Positions 1,797-11,619 of a DNA stretch of 64,000 nucleotides are shown here, in pieces. Within the stretch, counting starts at the first letter, position 1. The number at the start of each line of letters is the position of its first letter. This DNA comes from Candidatus Parcubacteria bacterium. Lineage in GTDB: Bacteria > Patescibacteriota > Minisyncoccia > Phycocordibacterales > UBA2100. A program made the translations under genes and the position numbers. The stretch covers positions 12,430 through 76,429 of the forward strand of contig JBEEJY010000010.1 in assembly GCA_041168925.1 (NCBI GenBank), given 5' to 3'. The notes beneath the pieces were generated by a model. It had not been told where the DNA came from, searched no databases, and saw only the letters and a list, made by a program, of their open reading frames with translations.

Positions 1797-2894
1797 ATGT
1801 CTTTGAGCATCGGCATTGTAGGTCTGCCAAATGTCGGGAAATCCACGCTTTTCAATGCGCTTACGCGCAAGGGCGTGCTTATCGCGAATTACCCGTTCGC
1901 GACCATCGATCCGTCGGTCGGGGTGGTTGCCGTACCTGATTTTCGCCTGGATAGGCTCGCAGAAATGTCACATTCCGAAAAAAAAGTGCCGGCCGCGGTG
2001 GAATTCGTCGATATCGCGGGTCTCGTCAAAGGAGCTTCGGAAGGGGAGGGTCTCGGCAATCAATTCTTGCAGCACATTCGCGAAGTGGATGCTATAGCAG
2101 AAATCGTGCGCATCTTCGACGACGAGGACATTCACCATGTTGCAGGCAACGTGGATCCGCGCTACGACATCGAGATAATCGACCTCGAACTCGTGCAGGC
2201 CGACAAGCAAACGGCGGAAAAGCGCCTCGAGCGCGTAGAACGTGACGCCAAAGGCGCGGATAAGGATCTCGTGACGGAGCGCGACGCGCTGCGCAAGCTC
2301 GTTCCTGCGCTGGCGCAGGGAAAGCCGGCGCGCAGCATCGCGCTCGACGAGAAAGAAAAAATAGCAGCCAAGAGCCTGCATCTTCTCACGATGAAACCGA
2401 TCTTGTATGTCCTCAATCGGAAAAGCGGCGCGCTCAATATTGACGCGGAAAACGGGCCTCGCTGGCGCGAGCTCAAAGCGCATCTTGATTCCACCGGCGC
2501 CGCGTACGTGCTCGTCGATGCGGGAGTCGAGAACGAGCTTGGCGACGTGCATGCAGACGAAAAAGCGGACTTCCGGCGCGAGCTTGGCGTATCGAGCGAC
2601 GGGCTAGACGACCTTATCAAAGCGGGATACAAACTGCTCGACCTTATCTCCTTCCTCACGACCGGCGAGAAAGAGAGCCGAGCGTGGACGATTCCGCGCG
2701 GCTCGAGCGCTCCCGATGCCGGCGCGGCTATCCACACCGACTTTCGCGACAAATTCATTCGCGCGGATGTTATCCGGTGGGATCGATTAGCCGAGTGCGG
2801 CTCGTGGGCGAAAGCTCGCGAGAAGGGCCTCGTGCGTACCGAGGGAAAGGAGTATATCGTGCAAGACGGCGACGTGATGGAGTTCAAGATATAG
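1797..2894 (+). CDS. ychF: ribosome-binding ATPase YchF (Obg-family GTPase)
   Basis: G1 motif GIVGLPNVGKSTLFNALT, a central coiled-coil insertion, and a C-terminal TGS domain (...REKGLVRTEGKEYIVQDGDVMEFKI) are typical YchF. Confidence 0.95.
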   Translation: MSLSIGIVGLPNVGKSTLFNALTRKGVLIANYPFATIDPSVGVVAVPDFRLDRLAEMSHSEKKVPAAVEFVDIAGLVKGASEGEGLGNQFLQHIREVDAIAEIVRIFDDEDIHHVAGNVDPRYDIEIIDLELVQADKQTAEKRLERVERDAKGADKDLVTERDALRKLVPALAQGKPARSIALDEKEKIAAKSLHLLTMKPILYVLNRKSGALNIDAENGPRWRELKAHLDSTGAAYVLVDAGVENELGDVHADEKADFRRELGVSSDGLDDLIKAGYKLLDLISFLTTGEKESRAWTIPRGSSAPDAGAAIHTDFRDKFIRADVIRWDRLAECGSWAKAREKGLVRTEGKEYIVQDGDVMEFKI

Positions 2895-3322: not shown

Positions 3323-3423
3323 TTCCTCCTTGAGCGTAAACTGTCCGGTGGATCGTTACTATACAACGAAAATCTCTGCTTGCCAAGGATGGCCACGTGC
3401 GCTCGTCGCGCTATACTTTCCGT

Positions 3424-4386
3424 ATGGACAAACCAAAAGTGACCCCGAAGGATTTCTTTTTGTGGTTCGCGGCGATGCTATTTTTGTATGCGGGCGTTTT
3501 CAACTACGTCGCGCTCGTGTGGGATTACATCAACTACAGTTTCCCCGATCCGCTGCAGTACTATCCGAGCGACCCTTACCAGAGCGGCATCAGCTGGGAG
3601 ATGGCGTCGCTCATCGTGCTCGCGCCTCTTTTCCTCGTCCTCATGTGGTGGATACACCGATCCATCAAGGCCGATTCGACGCGCGGTGAAATCTGGATCC
3701 GTCGCTGGGCCCTGTACTTGACGCTCTTTGTCGCGGGAGTCACGATCGCCGTCGATCTGATCTACGTCTTGTACGCCTTTTTAAGCGGCACGGATCTCAC
3801 GGCCCGGTTCCTTCTCAAAGCGCTCGTCGTCCTTGCGGTCGCTGCGGTCGGCTTCATGCACTTTCTCGCCGATCTCTGGGGGTATTGGGAGCAATTCCCC
3901 GGTCGCAATCGTTTCGTCGCCCTCGCGACGGCTCTTCTCGTCGCGATCACGGTGATCGCGGGGTTTTTTATTGTCGGCACGCCGGCCCAAGCCCGGTTGT
4001 ACCGCTTTGACGAACAGAAGGTGAGCGACCTCACTTCGATCCAGTACCAAATCGTCAATTACTGGCAATCGAAGCAGAGATTACCCATATCTCTCAGTGA
4101 TCTGAATGATTCGATCTCGAATTTCACCGTCCCGAACGACGCCCAGAGCGGCAAACCCTACACCTACAAGATAACCGGAGCGCATTCGTTCCAGCTCTGC
4201 GCAACCTTCAATGCCGAAACGCACGGCAACAATCCAATCCTTGCGCGCCCGAGCGAGCCGATGGCGGTAGGGGAGGCGGGAAAACCGATAGCCGACAATT
4301 GGCTGCACGGCGCCGGAGAGGCGTGTTTTGACCGCGCCATAGACCCTGAGCGCTACCCGCCTTTCTCGAAGCAAAAGACCCTGTAA
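3424..4386 (+). CDS. polytopic membrane protein, DUF5671-like N-terminal TM domain plus a C-terminal soluble region
   Basis: Start chosen at MDKPKV (the track start at 3397 is GTG). Four to five TM helices, then a soluble region. TATACT box 6 nt upstream of the ATG. Confidence 0.55.
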   Translation: MDKPKVTPKDFFLWFAAMLFLYAGVFNYVALVWDYINYSFPDPLQYYPSDPYQSGISWEMASLIVLAPLFLVLMWWIHRSIKADSTRGEIWIRRWALYLTLFVAGVTIAVDLIYVLYAFLSGTDLTARFLLKALVVLAVAAVGFMHFLADLWGYWEQFPGRNRFVALATALLVAITVIAGFFIVGTPAQARLYRFDEQKVSDLTSIQYQIVNYWQSKQRLPISLSDLNDSISNFTVPNDAQSGKPYTYKITGAHSFQLCATFNAETHGNNPILARPSEPMAVGEAGKPIADNWLHGAGEACFDRAIDPERYPPFSKQKTL

Positions 4387-4431: not shown

Positions 4432-7400
4432 ATGCACGGCTACGACCACAAGAAGATAGAGACCAAATGGCAAAAAGCGTGGGCGAAAAAGGGCCTCTAT
4501 AAAACATCCGATAAAGTAAAAGGGAAGGACAACTTTTACCTGTTGGTCGAATTCCCGTATCCATCCGGCAATCTCCACGTCGGGCACTGGTACGCCTTTT
4601 CCGTGCCCGACATTCTCGCACGCATGATGCGAATGCAGGGTAGGAACGTGCTCTATCCGATCGGTTTCGATGCGTTCGGCCTTCCGGCGGAAAATGCCGC
4701 GATCAAAAACAGGGTGAATCCGCGAAAGTGGACGCTGGGCAACATCGAATTCATGAAAAAGCAGATACGTTCGATGGGAACCTCATTCGACTGGTCGCGA
4801 GAAATCCTCACCTGCGATCCGGCATATTACAAGTGGACGCAATGGCTCTTCCTTCAATTTTTCAAGAGAGGTCTGGCGTATCAGAAAGAGACTCCCGCCA
4901 ATTGGTGCCCGAAAGACAAGACGGTGCTCGCCAACGAACAAGTCGTGGATGGCAAGTGCGAGCGTTGCGGCACGCAGGTAATCCAGAAAGAAATGCCGCA
5001 GTGGAATCTCAAGATAACCGACTACGCCGATCGGCTCATCAATGATCTCGACGCGCTTGACTGGCCGGAGCAGATAAAAGAATCGCAGCGCAACTGGATC
5101 GGCCGTTCCGAAGGATACGAAATCGATTTTCCTCTTGTTTTCGACGATGGCAAAAAGTACAAGTATGTTCTCTTGCACGGCTATACGGGACACGCGTCGG
5201 ATGCGCGGTGGCAGTGGATACGGCGCGAATTGGAAGCGCTGGGGCACGAGGTCATCATTCCCGAACTCCCGAATACCGATGATCCGAGCGAGGAAGAACA
5301 GGTCGAAGTGGCTTTACACGCTACAGAGTACGATGAACGGACGGTTCTCTTTGGCCACAGCCTCGGCGCGACGGTCGCGATGAAGGTTGTGGAAAAGCTT
5401 ACAGCTCCGATATCACGCCTCGTGCTAGCCGGAGCCGTGGTCAATCCGCGATTCAAAGACAAGAAACGGCCGTTCGAGAAGAAGTTCAGTTGGAGATTCG
5501 ACCCCGAAGCAATAAAAAAGAACGCGAAAAGCATTACGGTACTCCACGACCCGCGGGATTACGCGATCACCGAGAAACAAAGACAACTCATTGAAAACAT
5601 GCTCAATCTGAAGGCACGGCTATGCAGCACGACCGAGCCGCACTTTACGGGCGACAGGGAGCCGGATCTCCTCATGTGGCTGCGTCCGACCATCCGTGTT
5701 TTCACCACTCGCCCCGACACGCTCTATGGCGGCACTTTTCTCGTTCTCGCGCCCGAACATCCTTGGATCAAAGCGGCCCTGCAAAATGACGGACATCGTA
5801 AGTCCGTCATTTCAAACGAGGCAGAGATTCAACGCTACGTCGAGAATGCAGCGAAAAAGACAGAGCGCGAACGACAGGAGAGCAAGGAAAAGACGGGAGT
5901 TGAGCTGATGGGTGTGAAAGCCATCAATCCAACGACCGGAGCCGAAATACCGCTGTGGGTGGCCGACTACGCTCTGATGGGATTCGGCACTGGTGCGTTA
6001 TTTGGCGATGCGCACGACGCCCGCGACGTCGCCTTTGCGAAAAAGTACGGCATTCCGTTGAGGGAAACAATAGAGCCTTTGTTCATTCAGGAAACAGGGC
6101 TAGACAAAATTCGATCAGATGAGCCATTTACGGAGCGCAATTCCATTCACGCGTTCGTTAAGCATTGGTCGGACGAAAAGTACATGGCGGTGCACTATGT
6201 GCCGAGTGATATCAACGAGTGTGTGTCTGGTGGGATCGAAGAAGGTGAAGATGCGGTAACGGCGGCACAACGTGAGATACGTGAAGAGACAGGTTACAGT
6301 AAAGCGCGCTTCGTCAGGAAGTTGGGCAATCGAGTTCATGCGAAGTATTACAGCGTTGAACGCAAGAAGAACATGTTCGTGCATTTTACCCCACTCCTAT
6401 TCCAACTTGAAGATGATACTCAAGAGGAGATATCGGCGAGTGAAAAGGCGCGCCATGAGGTAAGTTGGCTTTCGAAGGAAGAGGTAGGGCGATTCTTCAA
6501 CCGGGACGATATCCGTCTGGGCTGGAGTCGCGTCGAGAATGATATTCCGTATGAGGGAAAGGGGATACTGTTCGACTCTGGAGAGTTCAGCGGGCTCACG
6601 AGCGATGAGGCGATGCCGAAGATCGGCGAGAAATTCGGACGACTGGTCAAACACTATCGCCTGCGCGATTGGATAGTATCGCGCCAACGCTATTGGGGAG
6701 TGCCCATACCGATCATTCATTGCGCAACGTGCGGCCCTGTTGCCGTGCCCGACAAAGACCTGCCCGTCAAATTACCGGAAGTCAGAGATTATCTGCCGGA
6801 CGGGAAGGGGAAATCGCCGCTCGCGAAGGTAATCAAATTCGTTCAGGTAAAATGTCCGCGCTGCAAGAGTTCGGCGCAGCGAGAAACCGACACGCTTGAT
6901 ACGTTCGTGGACTCGTCGTGGTATTTCTTGCGCTACACAGATCCAAAGAATAAAAAGAAATTCGCCGATGCAAATAAGATGGATCATTGGATGCCGGTCG
7001 ATCTCTACTCCGGCGGCGCGGAGCATACGACCATGCACGTGCTCTATTCCCGTTTCTGGCAGAAGGCGATGTTCGACCTCGGGCTCGTGAAAGACAAAGA
7101 GCCGTACGTGCGGCGCATGAATCGCTCCATCATTCTCGGGCCGGACGGCCAAAAAATGAGCAAATCGCACGGCAATGTCATCGATCCCGACGAAGTGGTC
7201 GCGCGGCTCGGGGCGGACACGGTGCGCATGTATCTCGCCTTCATCGGTCCGTACAGTGAGGTCTCCAGCTTCCCGTGGAATCCCGACGGAGTGGTCGGCG
7301 TCCGTCGCTTTCTCGAGCGGGTGTGGAATGCCGGCCAGAAATTGGCGGTGCAAGAGAAGCGAGTGGATGCGCTGCGACACATATTGCACAAGACCGTGAA

Positions 7401-7827
7401 AAAAGTCGGAGACGACATTATCGCGCTGAAATTCAATACCGCCATCAGTCAACTCATGATATTTCTCAACGCCGCGGAAAAAGAGAAAAAGATCGGCAAA
7501 GAACAGTGGGAAACGTTTTTGCGTCTCCTCGCGCCGTTCGCGCCGCACATGACAGACGAGCTCTGGCATTCCGCCGGCCGCAAACGATCCGTTCACATGG
7601 AATCGTGGCCGAAATACGACGAATCTCTCCTCAAAGACGAGCGAATGACGATGGCCGTGCAAATCAACGGCAAAACGAGAGGCGAGGTTACTCTCGCGAG
7701 CGATAGCGACAAGACGGTCCAAGAGCAGGCGGCGAGGTCGGTCGTCGCAACGCGCCTTCAGGGGAAAAACGTGCTGCGCGCGATCGTGGTGCCGGGAAGA
7801 CTCGTCAATTTTGTCGTCGCGGATTGA
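4432..7827 (+). CDS. leuS: leucyl-tRNA synthetase with two extra domains: a YdeN/RBBP9-like alpha/beta serine hydrolase (about 5128..5690) and a Nudix hydrolase (about 6110..6545)
   Basis: HVGH (HIGH) motif, NWIGRSEG, TTRPDT, GTG..HD.RD editing motifs, KMSKS, and an anticodon-binding C-terminus. It is 1131 aa versus about 800-880 typical. Inserted segments contain GHSLG/HGY (serine hydrolase) and a perfect Nudix box GGIEEGEDAVTAAQREIREETGY. Confidence 0.9.
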   Translation: MHGYDHKKIETKWQKAWAKKGLYKTSDKVKGKDNFYLLVEFPYPSGNLHVGHWYAFSVPDILARMMRMQGRNVLYPIGFDAFGLPAENAAIKNRVNPRKWTLGNIEFMKKQIRSMGTSFDWSREILTCDPAYYKWTQWLFLQFFKRGLAYQKETPANWCPKDKTVLANEQVVDGKCERCGTQVIQKEMPQWNLKITDYADRLINDLDALDWPEQIKESQRNWIGRSEGYEIDFPLVFDDGKKYKYVLLHGYTGHASDARWQWIRRELEALGHEVIIPELPNTDDPSEEEQVEVALHATEYDERTVLFGHSLGATVAMKVVEKLTAPISRLVLAGAVVNPRFKDKKRPFEKKFSWRFDPEAIKKNAKSITVLHDPRDYAITEKQRQLIENMLNLKARLCSTTEPHFTGDREPDLLMWLRPTIRVFTTRPDTLYGGTFLVLAPEHPWIKAALQNDGHRKSVISNEAEIQRYVENAAKKTERERQESKEKTGVELMGVKAINPTTGAEIPLWVADYALMGFGTGALFGDAHDARDVAFAKKYGIPLRETIEPLFIQETGLDKIRSDEPFTERNSIHAFVKHWSDEKYMAVHYVPSDINECVSGGIEEGEDAVTAAQREIREETGYSKARFVRKLGNRVHAKYYSVERKKNMFVHFTPLLFQLEDDTQEEISASEKARHEVSWLSKEEVGRFFNRDDIRLGWSRVENDIPYEGKGILFDSGEFSGLTSDEAMPKIGEKFGRLVKHYRLRDWIVSRQRYWGVPIPIIHCATCGPVAVPDKDLPVKLPEVRDYLPDGKGKSPLAKVIKFVQVKCPRCKSSAQRETDTLDTFVDSSWYFLRYTDPKNKKKFADANKMDHWMPVDLYSGGAEHTTMHVLYSRFWQKAMFDLGLVKDKEPYVRRMNRSIILGPDGQKMSKSHGNVIDPDEVVARLGADTVRMYLAFIGPYSEVSSFPWNPDGVVGVRRFLERVWNAGQKLAVQEKRVDALRHILHKTVKKVGDDIIALKFNTAISQLMIFLNAAEKEKKIGKEQWETFLRLLAPFAPHMTDELWHSAGRKRSVHMESWPKYDESLLKDERMTMAVQINGKTRGEVTLASDSDKTVQEQAARSVVATRLQGKNVLRAIVVPGRLVNFVVAD

Positions 7828-9354
7828 TCAGATCTTGAATACTTCGGGGCCCTCGCTCGTGTCTTTGAGGGCATAGCCTTTGCCCTCAAGCGCCGCGCGC
7901 AGCTCGTCGGCGCGCGGCCAATCCTTGGCCGCGCGCGCTTCCTCGCGATCCCTCATCAGTGCGCGAACGTCTTCTGGCAAGTCGGCGAGCGTAACGGGAA
8001 TCTCGCTCTCGGAAGCGGCGAGTCTTTTTGCCTGCTCGTCGGGCTCGAGGAGATTCAAACCGAGCACGCGGTCGAAATCGAGCAGCGTCGCAAGCACTTC
8101 AGCTTTGAGGAGAGAAGCATCTTTCGTCATCTCCCACAGCACGGCGAGCGCACCGGGCGTGTCGAGATCGTCGTTGATACGCTCGGTGAATTTGCTCTTC
8201 CACGACGCGGCAGGGGAGGACGGCGGCTCCGCAATCGACAGCCGAAGCGAGAGAATCTTCCCGTACGCCGTTTGCGCCGCCGCAAGCGCTTCCCACGTAA
8301 AGTTCGAGTTCGTCCGGTAGTGCGCGCCAAGCAGAAGATACCGCAGCGAGAGGGGATGAAAGCCGCGCTCCACGATATCGGATAGATACACGATATTTCC
8401 TTCGGATTTCGCGATTTTGGCGCCCTCGAGCTGGAGATGAGCCCGGTGAAGCCAGAAACGGCTCAACGGACGCTTGCCGGTGGCGCATTCGGATTGCGCG
8501 ATCTCGTTGTTGTGGTGAATAGGAATATGCTCGATCCCGCCGGTGTGAATATCGATTTGGGCGCCGAGCACGGCGCGAATCATCGCGGAGCATTCGATAT
8601 GCCAGCCGGGAAAGCCCCTGCCCCACGGCGAATCCCAGCCGATCTTTTTGCCGGATTTCCAAAGGAGAAAATCCGTCGGATGGCGCTTGGAATCGTCCTT
8701 GCCGACGCGGGCGCCCTCTTTCAAACCTTCCAGCCGCACCTTGCCGAGTTTACCGTAATCGCTGAAGCGCGACGTATCGAAATAAACGCCGTGCGCGCCC
8801 CTGTACGCGTATCCCTTCTCCTCGAGGGTCTTGATCATCGCGATTTGCGCGGGAATGTAATCACTCGCGCGGGGAAATGCGATCTTTTCGACTTCAATAT
8901 TAAGGGCGCGAATGTCTTCGAGAAAAAGGTTGGCGTATTTCTCGCCGAGCGCGCGCATGTTCGCGAGAGTAGGGGAAAGACCCTCCCGCTTGAGACCTCT
9001 GGTCATCTTGTCTTCGCCCTCGTCGGCGTCCGATGTGAGGTGGCCAAAGTCGGTGAAGTTGATCGCCTGCTTCACGGTATAGCCGTTGTACTCGAGCATT
9101 CTGCGAAGCACGTCGGTAAAAACGAACATCGAAAGATTCCCGATATGCTGGCGGCCGTAAACCGTGGGCCCGCAGTTGTACATGCGCACCTCTTTTGTAT
9201 GAGCGGGCAGGACGAATTCTTGCAGCTCGCCGCCGAGCGTGTTGTGCAGACGCACAGATACGCCATTGCCAGAGCGTTTTTTTTGCGTCCACGCGGCCGC
9301 CGCGTCGATCATCATGACATACAGCGAACCGACGAATTCGAGTAACGACGACAT
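7828..9354 (-). CDS. cysS: cysteinyl-tRNA synthetase
   Basis: NCGPTVYG..HIGN (HIGH-class), WHIECS, and KMSKS-like KIAKSEGN motifs with a DALR-like C-terminus. Start placed at MSSLLEF; the track ORF extends to an alternative upstream start at 9414. The stop codon abuts the leuS stop (TGAtca). Confidence 0.9.
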   Translation of the reverse strand: MSSLLEFVGSLYVMMIDAAAAWTQKKRSGNGVSVRLHNTLGGELQEFVLPAHTKEVRMYNCGPTVYGRQHIGNLSMFVFTDVLRRMLEYNGYTVKQAINFTDFGHLTSDADEGEDKMTRGLKREGLSPTLANMRALGEKYANLFLEDIRALNIEVEKIAFPRASDYIPAQIAMIKTLEEKGYAYRGAHGVYFDTSRFSDYGKLGKVRLEGLKEGARVGKDDSKRHPTDFLLWKSGKKIGWDSPWGRGFPGWHIECSAMIRAVLGAQIDIHTGGIEHIPIHHNNEIAQSECATGKRPLSRFWLHRAHLQLEGAKIAKSEGNIVYLSDIVERGFHPLSLRYLLLGAHYRTNSNFTWEALAAAQTAYGKILSLRLSIAEPPSSPAASWKSKFTERINDDLDTPGALAVLWEMTKDASLLKAEVLATLLDFDRVLGLNLLEPDEQAKRLAASESEIPVTLADLPEDVRALMRDREEARAAKDWPRADELRAALEGKGYALKDTSEGPEVFKI

Positions 9355-9361
9355 GAAAGCG

Positions 9362-10299
9362 CTACAGCCACTTCCTATACCGGAAATACCAGAGCATTCC
9401 GACTCCCGCGACAAAGACGCTGCCGACGATCACCCAAAAGCCGTTGGGAATGTTGCTGATCGGATTGCTTACCGTGTTGACGTCGAAGATCGCGACGAAG
9501 AGCGATAGCGGAAAAGTGAGGAGCGCCATGATGGTAAGGATGCGCATCGTTTCGTTTTGCTTCGTCGTGAGCAGAGAGTCGTTGGTCTCGCGAAGTTCAT
9601 GGAGAGATTCGATCTCCCTCATGACGTGATTGTGGACCCGGTAGTATTCGTCGGAAAGGGCACGGACGTAGGGCGCGAACGATTCGCCGAAGAATTGCGC
9701 GCCTACCGTCTCGAATTCGCGCAGCACGTCGCGATGAGGCTCAATGCGCTGTCGGAGACTCAAGAGATCGCGGGCGTTGCGCGAGATCGTCTCGACCATC
9801 TGCACTTCGTGTCCGCTGAAAATATGCTCTTCGATGATTGCAAGCTCATGTCTGATGTATTCGACCTCGTGCTCGACTGACTGGTAGAGTTTCTTGAGCA
9901 TGTAGTAGAACATGTAGCCTGCGTGATCGCCGAGGTTGCTCTTGTCGAGCAGAGAATTAACTTCGAAAACCTTCGAGAATTTGTGCAGCGGATCGATCGT
10001 TTCGTAATGAGTCGTCACTAGGTACTTCTTGCCGATCAGGAAATCCACTTCCTGCTCCCGAGTTTTGTGGCTGTGGCGCAGGGCGGGAAAGTGAAGCACG
10101 AGGTATAGGTAGTCGCCGTGATACTCCGCGTGCGGCTTGGTCGAGGGAAGCAAGAGTTCTTCGGCGACGAGCGGCTCGACGCCGAACTCATTGACGATAT
10201 CTTGTACTTCGTCGCGGGTGGGGGATTCAAGGTCGATCCACACCAAGCCGTTATGCTGGTAGCGGCTATGCATTCGAAAAGTATACCGCCACTCTTTCA
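9362..10299 (-). CDS. corA: CorA-family divalent cation transporter with a non-canonical D-V-N in place of the G-M-N signature
   Basis: CorA-like cytoplasmic domain plus 2 C-terminal TM helices (MRILTIMALLTFPLSLFVAIFDVN...GFWVIVGSVFVAGVGMLWYFRYRKWL). Start chosen at MKEWRY; the upstream part of the track ORF is Arg-rich and would overlap the cysS start region. Confidence 0.75.
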
Positions 10300-10362
10300 T
10301 AGTCACTAGGGCTGCCTCGCACAAAGTGGCCAACGGGTATGAGATATGGGATAATCCCCGCA

Positions 10363-11619
10363 ATGTATACAATCGCGCGCAAGCAGATACCGCTCGCGCT
10401 CGCCGTTTTGTGCGGAGCGGCGATAGCGCTTGTGGCATTCGGGGCAGGGCTCGTATTCGCGCCGAGAATGCCCGATGGCGTGATGCCGACTCTTTCAGGC
10501 GGGAGTGCTCCTCCGCAAGATGTCGATTTTTCACCGGTGTGGAAAGCGTGGGGCGTGATAAACGATAAATTCGTCCCGGCCGCGGTCGCAACGTCGACAA
10601 AAGTCGCGACTTCCACCGAAGAGATGAATCAGGAAAAAGTATGGGGCATGATCGAAGGATTGGCCGCTTCACTCAATGATCCGTATACCTTTTTCCTTCC
10701 GCCGCCGGAAAACCAGCAATTCACCGACGACATGAGCGGCGCATTCGAAGGTGTCGGCATGGAGATCGCGGTACGCGATCAAGTCCTCACGGTCGTTTCG
10801 CCCCTCAAGGGCACTCCCGCAGAAAAAGCCGGGCTCAAGAGCAAGGATCAGATACTGAAGATCGACGGAGAATCGACCCAGGGACTTGATGTGAATGCGG
10901 CGGTGCGGAAGATCCGAGGGCCAAAGGGAAGCATCGTGACGCTCACCGTGTTTCGATCAGGATGGAGCGAGCCGAGGGAGATTAAGGTCATGCGCGACGT
11001 GATCAACGTGCCGACGCTTTCAACGACGGCGCGCGAGGACGGGGTCTTCGTCATTCAGCTCATGAGCTTTACCGCAAATTCTCCGGAGCTTTTCCGCAAC
11101 GCGCTTCGTGAATTCGTGCGGTCGGGCGATACCAAGCTCGTTCTCGATTTGCGCGGAAATCCCGGCGGCTATCTCGAGGCGGCGGTCGAGATGGGAAGCT
11201 GGTTCTTGCAAAGCGGCAAGGTGATCGTCACGGAGGATTATGCCGGACATGCGCCCAATATCGTCCATCGAAGCCTCGGCTACGACATTTTCAATAAGAA
11301 TTTGCGCATGGTCGTGCTCGTCGATCACGGCTCGGCATCCGCGGCGGAAATACTTGCGGACGCCCTGCATCACTATCGCATCGCAACAATGGTAGGAGAC
11401 AACACCTTCGGCAAGGGATCGGTGCAAGAGCTCGTCGACATCGCAAACGGGAGCGCGCTCAAGATCACGGTCGCCCGCTGGCTCGGGCCCGATGGCGAAC
11501 AGATACCGCGGGAAGGAATCATTCCCGACGTGCGCGTAGAGTTTACGGACAAGGACAAGGAAACGGGGAGGGATCCGCAGATGGATCGCGCCGTGGAGAT
11601 ACTGAGAAACGGCCTGTGA
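10363..11619 (+). CDS. ctpA: C-terminal processing peptidase, S41 family (PDZ + peptidase S41)
   Basis: Signal-anchor N-terminus, a PDZ region (GMEIAVRDQVLTVVSPLKGTPAEKAGLKSKDQILKIDG), an S41 core (LVLDLRGNPGGYL...VLVDHGSASAAEILADAL) and a GKGS motif. Confidence 0.8.
   Translation: MYTIARKQIPLALAVLCGAAIALVAFGAGLVFAPRMPDGVMPTLSGGSAPPQDVDFSPVWKAWGVINDKFVPAAVATSTKVATSTEEMNQEKVWGMIEGLAASLNDPYTFFLPPPENQQFTDDMSGAFEGVGMEIAVRDQVLTVVSPLKGTPAEKAGLKSKDQILKIDGESTQGLDVNAAVRKIRGPKGSIVTLTVFRSGWSEPREIKVMRDVINVPTLSTTAREDGVFVIQLMSFTANSPELFRNALREFVRSGDTKLVLDLRGNPGGYLEAAVEMGSWFLQSGKVIVTEDYAGHAPNIVHRSLGYDIFNKNLRMVVLVDHGSASAAEILADALHHYRIATMVGDNTFGKGSVQELVDIANGSALKITVARWLGPDGEQIPREGIIPDVRVEFTDKDKETGRDPQMDRAVEILRNGL

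Follow-up and report, generated by a model that had tools for sequence, protein, structure and literature searches.

Leucyl-tRNA synthetase (LeuRS) is a housekeeping enzyme whose canonical architecture is represented by the structures from Thermus thermophilus (1H3N/2BYT) and Escherichia coli (4AQ7). Only a few editing modules are known for the aminoacyl-tRNA synthetases, namely the CP1 domain, YbaK/ProX, AlaX and DTD. The YdeN/RBBP9 family (PF06821), which includes Bacillus subtilis YdeN (1UXO) and human RBBP9 (2QS9, 7OEX, 9FCR), consists of free serine hydrolases of ~180 amino acids (aa) with a minimal lid-less fold. Human RBBP9 is a cancer-associated orphan hydrolase for which cleavage of a valyl-nucleoside ester and of single hydrophobic amino acids is already known. 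The DNA analyzed in this work, hereafter the window, is a stretch of 64,000 nucleotides (nts) from contig JBEEJY010000010.1 (assembly GCA_041168925.1, positions 12,430 to 76,429 of the forward strand) of an uncultured Kaiserbacteria-like bacterium of the candidate phyla radiation (CPR). Its leuS gene encodes a LeuRS with two further hydrolases within the editing domain, a YdeN/RBBP9-like enzyme and a predicted Nudix enzyme, both apparently active judging from their conserved motifs.

The leuS reading frame is unbroken in the list of open reading frames (ORFs), with no frameshift and no internal stop over its 1131 codons, as the first-pass annotation of the window had stated. Despite both inserts, the product scores 919.5 bits with the TIGR00396 (leuS_bact) model, for which the equivalog cut-off is 548.4, and its nearest solved relative is T. 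thermophilus LeuRS (1H3N, E 1e-209). The alignment with 1H3N consists of four collinear blocks, in which residues 2-235, 421-548, 706-904 and 908-1129 match T. thermophilus residues 2-236, 243-363, 376-580 and 637-876, respectively. Two segments, aa 236-420 (insert 1, at site A) and aa 549-705 (insert 2, at site B), are left without a LeuRS counterpart.

Insert 1 consists of 185 aa in place of a six-residue hairpin loop (T. thermophilus 237-242), shortly ahead of the T-rich motif of the editing site. Its position is inside the first beta-hairpin of CP1 and falls between positions ~21 and 22 of the Pfam model tRNA-synt_1_2, with ...NWIGRSEGYEIDFPL before it and TIRVFTTRPDTLYG after it. The first-pass annotation had placed a hydrolase domain at 5128-5690, between these two flanks and ahead of CP1. 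The insertion and its flanks are indeed found there, but the site is inside the CP1 hairpin rather than strictly before CP1, and the 1H3N alignment refines the limits to 5137-5691. Its linkers are short, with ~8 residues leading in and ~3 leading out a few residues before the T-rich motif, and the domain is probably held rigidly against CP1.

Insert 1 is a genuine YdeN/RBBP9-family (PF06821) serine hydrolase domain, in agreement with the family originally proposed. As had been anticipated, Pfam detects alpha/beta-hydrolase families on residues ~246-391 (Abhydrolase_6, E 1e-9; Abhydrolase_1, E 1e-7). The Ser_hydrolase model PF06821 is borderline for the copy in the window, with 22.6-23.0 bits for the isolated insert (cut-off 22) and 18.4 bits in the full protein, and it is matched individually by 14 of 15 diverse inserts, with a best E of 7e-11. 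A profile built from 15 diverse inserts matches YdeN 1UXO with an E of 4e-24 (chain positions 5-170 of 192) and human RBBP9 with an E of 2e-21 over essentially its whole length, the next alpha/beta-hydrolase reaching only 5e-7. The AlphaFold2 (AF2) model of the isolated insert (pLDDT 94.5, pTM 0.92) was compared with known structures using Foldseek, which gave template modeling (TM) scores of 0.84 to 1UXO and 0.81-0.82 to RBBP9 (9FCR, 7OEX), the next folds being at ~0.6. The model and these matches describe a minimal lid-less alpha/beta-hydrolase of ~180-190 residues.

The motifs on which the family proposal had been based are all present, namely HG (249-250), GHSLG (308-312), HDPRD (372-376) and PHF (403-405). 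Profile alignment to RBBP9 and YdeN places Ser310 on the catalytic Ser75 of RBBP9, and the hidden Markov model alignment places Asp376 on Asp138. With His404 at the position of His165, the triad positions of the two proteins are shared, and Asp373 is a further conserved aspartate. The HG motif, also present in RBBP9, is presumably the oxyanion-hole motif, as in alpha/beta-hydrolases generally. Conservation was assessed in an alignment of the query with 120 homologues (121 sequences), in which 115 sequences carry the hydrolase insert and 114 the Nudix domain (Table 1). Fifteen positions of insert 1 are essentially invariant, including H249, G250, G308, S310, G312, D373 and H404. The serine and the histidine are also retained in every class of copy, be it at site A, at a second LeuRS position (site C, see below), in stand-alone proteins or in other hosts. 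The mean pairwise identity of insert 1 is only 0.46, against 0.81 for the N-terminal catalytic half, and the two inserts and the LeuRS core cover 0.44-0.46 and 0.75-0.81, respectively. Retention of the catalytic set amid such low overall identity points to purifying selection on catalysis and not to a decayed remnant. Hence, insert 1 is very probably an active serine hydrolase of the YdeN/RBBP9 family.

The second insert was missed by the first-pass annotation, which named the hydrolase only. It consists of 157 aa in place of T. thermophilus residues 364-375, in a second CP1 loop, and is assigned by sequence and predicted fold to the Nudix hydrolase superfamily (PF00293). Pfam detects NUDIX with an E of 6e-12, the AF2 model of the isolated domain has a pLDDT of 97.0, and its nearest Foldseek neighbors are Nudix structures. 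The Nudix box fits the consensus GX5EX7REUXEEXGU. Its core positions G600, R614, E615, E618, E619 and G621 are kept in 113-114 of 114 sequences, followed by E606 (110/114), Y622 (109/114) and I616 (98/114). Neighbors in sequence and fold include uncharacterized MutT/Nudix proteins, MutT1/Rv2985, Ap4A hydrolases (3I7U, 4MPO, 4IJX), RppH, ADP-ribose pyrophosphatases and the decapping effector AvrM14. The subfamily matches (NCBIfam, PDB profile and Foldseek) are mixed and all below family cut-offs, and the nearest structures in Foldseek include several Ap4A/NpnN hydrolases and RppH.

The host enzyme is complete in its synthetic and editing motifs. HVGH, KMSKS, TTRxDT, GTG and HDxRD are kept in 118-121 of the 121 aligned LeuRS sequences, and the same motifs are retained in virtually all other hydrolase-bearing LeuRS variants. 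Since both the synthetic and the CP1 editing motifs are intact, the hydrolase adds to CP1 and does not substitute for it. The suggestion in the first-pass annotation that the domain might be an alternative deacylase is thus not borne out, TTRxDT, GTG and HDxRD being intact in essentially all carriers, and replacement of a dead CP1 was rejected on the same ground. A single deviant is known, a 1016-aa LeuRS with the hydrolase at site C (P0130), in which TTWPHT stands in place of the T-rich motif TTRPDT and HDQRD is retained; it is the only hint of a changed editing pocket among the carriers. No second leuS was found within the window, and no assembly with two leuS loci was found in a scan of GTDB.

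The architecture is not confined to one genome, and a one-off case is not supported. In a large protein database, more than 100 protein clusters share the LeuRS, abhydrolase and NUDIX Pfam content, with identities of 58-99% over 100% coverage. Their sources are assemblies from NCBI, ENA, JGI and Logan, the largest contig measuring 481 kb, and most bear the name Candidatus Kaiserbacteria, Paceibacterota or Patescibacteria; a 99%-identical LeuRS is present in an independent JGI assembly. Both domain families and the host enzyme are well known, and numerous sequences of this kind are already deposited in public databases, where automatic annotation names them inconsistently ('alpha/beta fold hydrolase', 'class I tRNA ligase family protein', 'NUDIX domain-containing protein'). 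The combination of LeuRS, hydrolase and Nudix has no curated family.

Because the source is an assembly from an uncultured organism, there are formal grounds to consider an artefact or a selfish element, that is, a chimeric assembly, a frameshifted or split gene, a pseudogene or an intein. Recovery of the same layout in independent assemblies indicates that the inserts are not an artefact, and the unbroken ORF, the 99% match from JGI and the more than 100 clusters exclude the chimeric or split gene that the first-pass annotation had considered as an alternative. Pfam detects no Hint, intein or homing-endonuclease domain in the leuS product, the GC content of insert 1, overall and at third codon positions (GC3), is that of its flanks with no break in composition, and the insert has neither significant flanking repeats nor another copy in the window. 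An intein or mobile in-frame element was rejected on these grounds. Together with the constraint on the catalytic motifs, these results refute the artefact explanation, for which the remaining probability is negligible.

Presence of the inserts varies among relatives. In the 121 aligned sequences, both inserts are found in 108, the hydrolase only in 7, the Nudix domain only in 6, and none lacks both. Among GTDB species representatives, 8 carry both, ~8 the hydrolase only, ~11 the Nudix domain only, and several, including L024, neither. In a neighbor-joining tree of 771 LeuRS core columns, computed without support values, these states are interspersed in a Kaiserbacteria-like crown group with Nudix-only lineages at its base, which implies several gains and/or losses. 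Up to three inserts are observed in one protein, the 1319-aa LeuRS of L012 (CAWKMY010000003.1, 4001-7957), with a Nudix domain after Q208, the hydrolase at site A and a second Nudix domain at site B. P0174 and P0146 resemble it, with a Nudix domain before CP1, a site-A hydrolase and a site-B Nudix domain. The GTDB scan also recovered bacterial-type LeuRS genes with ~35-53% identity to the query in Promethearchaeota and in metagenome-assembled genomes of uncultured archaea (L047-L062); the presence of leuS in such Asgard-archaeal assemblies may reflect horizontal transfer.

An exhaustive search with insert 1 over 1.84 billion cluster representatives gave 980 matches at E<=1e-3. Restricting the best 150 of these 980 to representatives of 260 aa or more leaves 64, of which 46 are LeuRS. 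Mapping against insert-less LeuRS places the hydrolase at two positions, the CP1 hairpin (site A) in most proteins and, in P0130, P0164, P0162 and P0181, a point of the ZN-2 knuckle immediately following its first HCxxC (site C). The Nudix domain occupies three positions, after Q554 in most proteins, after Q452 in P0181 and after Q208 in L012. The combinations observed in LeuRS are Nudix at site B with the hydrolase at site C, Nudix at 452 with the hydrolase at site C, Nudix-hydrolase-Nudix, and GNAT with the hydrolase at site A. Outside LeuRS, the hydrolase is embedded in ValRS (P0186), AlaRS (P0208), an Fmt-like formyltransferase (P0192), a GatA-like amidase (P0264) and archaeal Kae1 (P0165), the Fmt-like and GatA-like calls being best matches below family cut-offs for fragmentary representatives. 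The non-LeuRS hosts are mostly enzymes that handle aminoacyl-tRNA or adenylates. A smaller fusion joins the hydrolase to a Nudix domain (P0260).

Other passengers were observed in the same synthetases. The 1318-aa protein P0223 carries a GNAT acetyltransferase together with the hydrolase at site A, and a 998-aa LeuRS fragment (P0159) carries an IS200-like Y1 transposase domain (PF01797, E 5e-14) in-frame at site A and the hydrolase at the ZN-2 site. A transposase domain within the frame of a synthetase is unusual. P0223 and P0158 (1163 aa) have a further insert of 124-146 aa after Q1051, in the anticodon-binding/C-terminal region, for which no Pfam match was found.

Stand-alone copies of the hydrolase are encoded beside leuS in several lineages. 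P0121, P0138 and P0143 are among the closest stand-alone homologues of insert 1. P0121, which is 46% identical to it, ends 6 nts upstream of an insert-less 809-aa leuS, P0138 ends 36 nts upstream of an 801-aa leuS, and P0143 ends 24 nts upstream of a 957-aa leuS that carries the Nudix insert only. On the other side of the gene, P0153 starts 2 nts downstream of an 806-aa leuS and overlaps Sua5, and P0128, a tandem hydrolase whose locus has the same synteny as that of P0153, overlaps the stop of an 805-aa leuS. The order of genes in these loci (L077 and L080/L081) is (TatD) - IMPase - leuS - YdeN-like hydrolase, single or tandem - Sua5/TsaC - MFS - SHMT - BacA. The parts upstream differ, with Ham1 upstream of IMPase in L077 and TatD and a further class I aminoacyl-tRNA synthetase in L080. 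This synteny links the hydrolase both to leuS and to the t6A enzyme Sua5.

A further arrangement is the P0151 operon (L076 4001-8549; GCA_020049755.1, JAHZTO010004402.1), in which two Ser_hydrolase genes, tRNA_edit, Ham1 and LeuRS follow each other and overlap tightly. Its tRNA_edit protein is of the YbaK/ProX type (E 8e-25) and its LeuRS is of the archaeal type (TIGR00395, 751 bits, cut-off 648.5); the contig also holds archaeal-looking regulators. No synthetase is adjacent in the contexts of P0144, P0260 and P0243, the second of which lies within a Ham1-Nudix-hydrolase cluster. Overall, of 9 informative contexts (P0149, for which there was no DNA, lies outside this count), 6 show a stand-alone hydrolase adjoining leuS; these represent at least three arrangements and LeuRS of both bacterial and archaeal types. 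Ham1 or Nudix genes adjoin the hydrolase in three contexts. Adjacency to one given gene is expected by chance in ~0.25% of cases (our own estimate, for a genome of ~800 genes). Being far beyond chance, the adjacency to leuS is the strongest argument for the hydrolase working with LeuRS. Within 4 kb of leuS, no stand-alone hydrolase or Nudix gene was found in the 37 GTDB loci whose leuS has a single insert or none, which indicates that the adjacent-gene arrangement is confined to other lineages.

The features of leuS and of its surroundings are collected in Table 1, the motif coordinates having been confirmed by re-translation. The leucine-specific domain (T. thermophilus ~581-636) is absent from the product, where the jump from T. 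thermophilus 580 to 637 spans ~3 residues (aa 904-908, ~7141-7155) just before KMSKS. The cysS gene converges on leuS with zero gap, its frame ending at 7828 and the leuS stop at 7827; as listed, the cysS ORF begins at an upstream TTG, and its N-terminus is probably ~55 residues too long. Scans of the whole window for tRNA genes and for Rfam families at gathering threshold found nothing.

Table 1. Features of leuS and neighboring genes in the window (positions count from the first letter of the stretch; Tth, T. thermophilus LeuRS 1H3N numbering).
Feature	Position	Strand	Basis or conservation
leuS, bacterial-type leucyl-tRNA synthetase, 1131 aa + TGA stop	4432..7827	+	ORF list, TIGR00396, 1H3N match
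N-terminal half of catalytic (Rossmann) domain with ZN-1 and first strand of CP1 hairpin, aa 1-235	4432..5136	+	Tth 2-236 alignment
HVGH motif, aa 49-52	4576-4587	+	120-121/121 homologues
Insert 1, YdeN/RBBP9-family (PF06821) serine hydrolase, aa 236-420, site A	5137..5691	+	Pfam, profile, AF2, Foldseek
HG motif, His249-Gly250	5176..5181	+	H 115/115, G 112/115 insert-bearing homologues
Nucleophile elbow, G308-H-S310-L-G312	5353..5367	+	G308 114/115, S310 115/115, G312 115/115
Acid motif, D373-P-R-D376	5548..5559	+	D373 Asp in 113/115; 376 Asp in 100, Glu in 15 of 115
Predicted catalytic His404	5641..5643	+	H 115/115; aligned with RBBP9 His165
CP1 editing domain, first part, aa 421-548	5692..6075	+	Pfam tRNA-synt_1_2 E 1e-42; Tth 243-363
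T-rich motif TTRPDT, aa 425-430	5704-5721	+	T426, T430 in 120-121/121
GTG motif, aa 519-521	5986-5994	+	CP1 motifs kept in 118-121/121
HDARD motif, aa 528-532	6013-6027	+	D529, D532 in 120-121/121
Insert 2, predicted Nudix hydrolase domain, aa 549-705, site B	6076..6546	+	Pfam, AF2, Foldseek
Nudix box GGIEEGEDAVTAAQREIREETGY	6229-6297	+	G600-x5-E606-x7-R614-E615-I616-x-E618-E619-x-G621-Y622
CP1 end, ZN-2 knuckle and C-terminal half of catalytic domain, aa 706-980	6547..7371	+	Tth 376-580, then jump to 637
ZN-2 knuckle HCATC...CPRC	within 6709-6876	+	
KMSKS motif, aa 908-912	7153-7167	+	121/121 homologues
Anticodon-binding and C-terminal tRNA-binding domains, aa 981-1131	7372..7824	+	Pfam Anticodon_1 E 1.5e-22; Tth 637-876
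YchF	1797-2894		
DUF5671 membrane protein	3397-4386		
cysS (CysRS)	7828-9414	-	
CorA	9362-10672	-	

The chemistry described for the family bears on what the domain may do at LeuRS. RBBP9, the one member of the family that is characterized, yields acyl-enzyme adducts with individual hydrophobic amino acids (Leu/Ile, Met, Phe, Tyr and Trp) and requires a free alpha-amine (PMC8866121). It is also listed, in a passage of PMC7730578 that cites Shenoy 2020, as an activating enzyme of valacyclovir, the valyl ester of a nucleoside analogue. The 3′ end of an aminoacyl-tRNA and an aminoacyl-adenylate are chemically exactly such species. The RBBP9 chemistry and the stand-alone copies beside leuS together render aminoacyl ester hydrolysis more plausible than it was from the sequence alone. 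The hydrolase is probably coupled functionally to LeuRS and not a mere passenger. That its substrate is an aminoacyl-adenosine-type species, on a tRNA or a nucleotide, is by analogy a real possibility, if slightly short of an even chance. The recurrent Nudix, Ham1 and IMPase partners mean that this substrate could be tRNA-bound or a small aminoacyl-nucleotide.

As the most likely explanation, we propose an accessory aminoacyl hydrolase that would work with LeuRS alongside the canonical pocket of CP1. The carbonyl attacked by Ser310 would be that of an amino acid with a free alpha-amine, linked to adenosine as an ester or an anhydride. Candidate substrates would be mis-acylated tRNA, at its 3′ end, or a non-cognate aminoacyl-adenylate or aminoacyl-nucleotide after its release, and the hydrolase would add a clearance activity with a specificity different from that of CP1. 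The Nudix partner may remove nucleotides that the synthetase forms as by-products, such as Ap4A, of which synthetases are the main cellular source. A broader and more tentative form, which we consider somewhat unlikely as a whole, casts the YdeN/RBBP9-like hydrolase, in many cases accompanied by a Nudix or Ham1 pyrophosphatase, as a hitherto unrecognized quality-control module that would assist the aminoacyl-tRNA synthetases of CPR bacteria and DPANN-like archaea by clearing aminoacyl-adenosine species, possibly including antibiotic mimics, directly at the synthetase.

Several observations weigh against this proposal. No alpha/beta-hydrolase that deacylates aminoacyl-tRNA was found by full-text searches of an incomplete library, and in the profile alignment insert 1 shows no clear counterpart of Glu108, by which RBBP9 anchors the alpha-amine. 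The hydrolase is also embedded in a UvrA-like ABC ATPase (P0171) and in SecA (P0154), which do not fit a tRNA-centered role, and neither do its smaller fusions to GNAT, IMPase and peptidase S51. Furthermore, L024, a 64% identical relative, has neither insert, and close relatives lacking one or both imply that neither is indispensable for LeuRS. Site A accepts unrelated passengers (GNAT with the hydrolase, the Y1 transposase domain), which suggests a permissive loop. These hosts, fusions and passengers are what would be expected if insert 1, like the Nudix domain, were an autonomous small enzyme, such as a general esterase or aminopeptidase, tolerated in a permissive loop and co-expressed with LeuRS with no mechanistic link to leucylation or editing. 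Its adjacent N- and C-termini would let such a domain sit in surface loops of large housekeeping proteins in the streamlined genomes of CPR and DPANN organisms. The other inserts after Q1051, the repeated losses of inserts among close relatives whose LeuRS is intact and the faster evolution of the inserts relative to the core are also in its favor. However, a passenger does not readily account for the share of LeuRS among the long representatives (46 of 64, among the best 150 of 980 matches), for independent insertions at two LeuRS sites, or for the stand-alone genes that adjoin leuS so much more often than chance allows, one of them with an archaeal-type leuS and a YbaK-type deacylase. A pure passenger is considered unlikely.

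The domain could instead serve substrate supply. An RBBP9-like aminopeptidase would release leucine, or another hydrophobic residue, from the N-termini of peptides that the cell scavenges and feed the synthetase of an auxotrophic episymbiont; CPR bacteria generally lack amino-acid biosynthesis, and one relative of the hydrolase is fused to peptidase S51. RBBP9 itself is an aminopeptidase with Leu/Ile adducts trapped on its serine (PMC8866121), and a precedent exists in Mycoplasma penetrans, whose methionyl-tRNA synthetase (MetRS) carries an appended aminotransferase supplying methionine (PMC7694997). However, supply would leave the Nudix/Ham1 partnership and the YbaK operon unexplained, as well as the Fmt, GatA-like and Kae1 hosts, which consume no free amino acid, and the insertion site is in the editing domain, away from the synthetic site. 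Substrate supply is considered quite improbable.

Defense has also to be weighed against accessory aminoacyl hydrolysis in the service of LeuRS. The hydrolase, the Nudix domain and, in some proteins, GNAT might form an antidote embedded in the target, inactivating aminoacyl-nucleotide antibiotics that mimic Leu-AMP. In resistance to microcin C, MccF cleaves the aminoacyl-nucleotide bond and the GNATs MccE/RimL acetylate the alpha-amine. The set of serine hydrolase, GNAT and Nudix found in CPR LeuRS fits chemistries directed against aminoacyl-adenylate mimics, the RBBP9 family cleaves aminoacyl conjugates with a free alpha-amine, and an NCBIfam model 'ileS_w_GNAT' (NF040702) exists. Nevertheless, deep and broad conservation across the whole lineage looks like housekeeping and not like resistance, and no resistance-island context is apparent in the window, where the neighbors are YchF, the DUF5671 protein, CysRS and CorA. 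By analogy with known systems, such an antidote would be conceivable but is judged very improbable.

No description of LeuRS or of any other synthetase with a YdeN/RBBP9 or Nudix insertion was found in the full-text library searched, which is incomplete. The LeuRS insertion sites, the other synthetases and the leuS operons together point to a so far undescribed activity, accessory to translation quality control, among the very large group of uncultured CPR and DPANN organisms. They also provide the first genomic guilt-by-association clue as to which substrates the YdeN/RBBP9 family has in nature. If the proposed role is true, it would constitute a third route beside the built-in editing of the CP1 type and the free-standing trans-editing factors, and would give the orphan YdeN/RBBP9 family, including human RBBP9, a physiological substrate class.

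The LeuRS of the window is collinear with canonical LeuRS in its core domains and shares the HIGH, KMSKS, T-rich, GTG and HDxRD motifs. It differs from it by hydrolases of 185 aa and 157 aa in place of CP1 loops of 6 and 12 residues, and by the lack of the leucine-specific domain. Similarly, insert 1 shares its fold with YdeN and RBBP9, to which it is 18-22% identical in structure-based (Foldseek) alignments. Unlike these free proteins, it sits in-frame in a CP1 loop, and it has the near-invariant Asp373 and an invariant Glu410 in addition. The proposed analogy with the trans-editing factors YbaK/ProXp (PF04073), AlaX and DTD is that of an extra hydrolase clearing wrong aminoacyl esters beside the synthetase, and a YbaK-type gene shares the P0151 operon with two YdeN-like genes and leuS. 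However, their folds and mechanisms are unrelated to insert 1, none uses a Ser-His-Asp triad, and deacylation by the YdeN/RBBP9 family is a proposal.

BPHL (valacyclovirase) is, like insert 1, a serine hydrolase, and it cleaves an alpha-aminoacyl group from a nucleoside scaffold. It is a larger alpha/beta hydrolase with a lid, belongs to another family and has no association with a synthetase. MccF of the microcin C system, a serine hydrolase of peptidase family S66, cuts an aminoacyl-nucleotide bond, likewise with no association with a synthetase. Parallels in architecture are the MetRS-aminotransferase of M. penetrans (PMC7694997) and the IleRS-GNAT of NF040702, in which a foreign enzyme domain is likewise joined to a synthetase in a reduced-genome organism. 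Unlike these, the CPR LeuRS involves other domain families, inserted internally into CP1, two at once, and recurring at several sites and in several synthetases.

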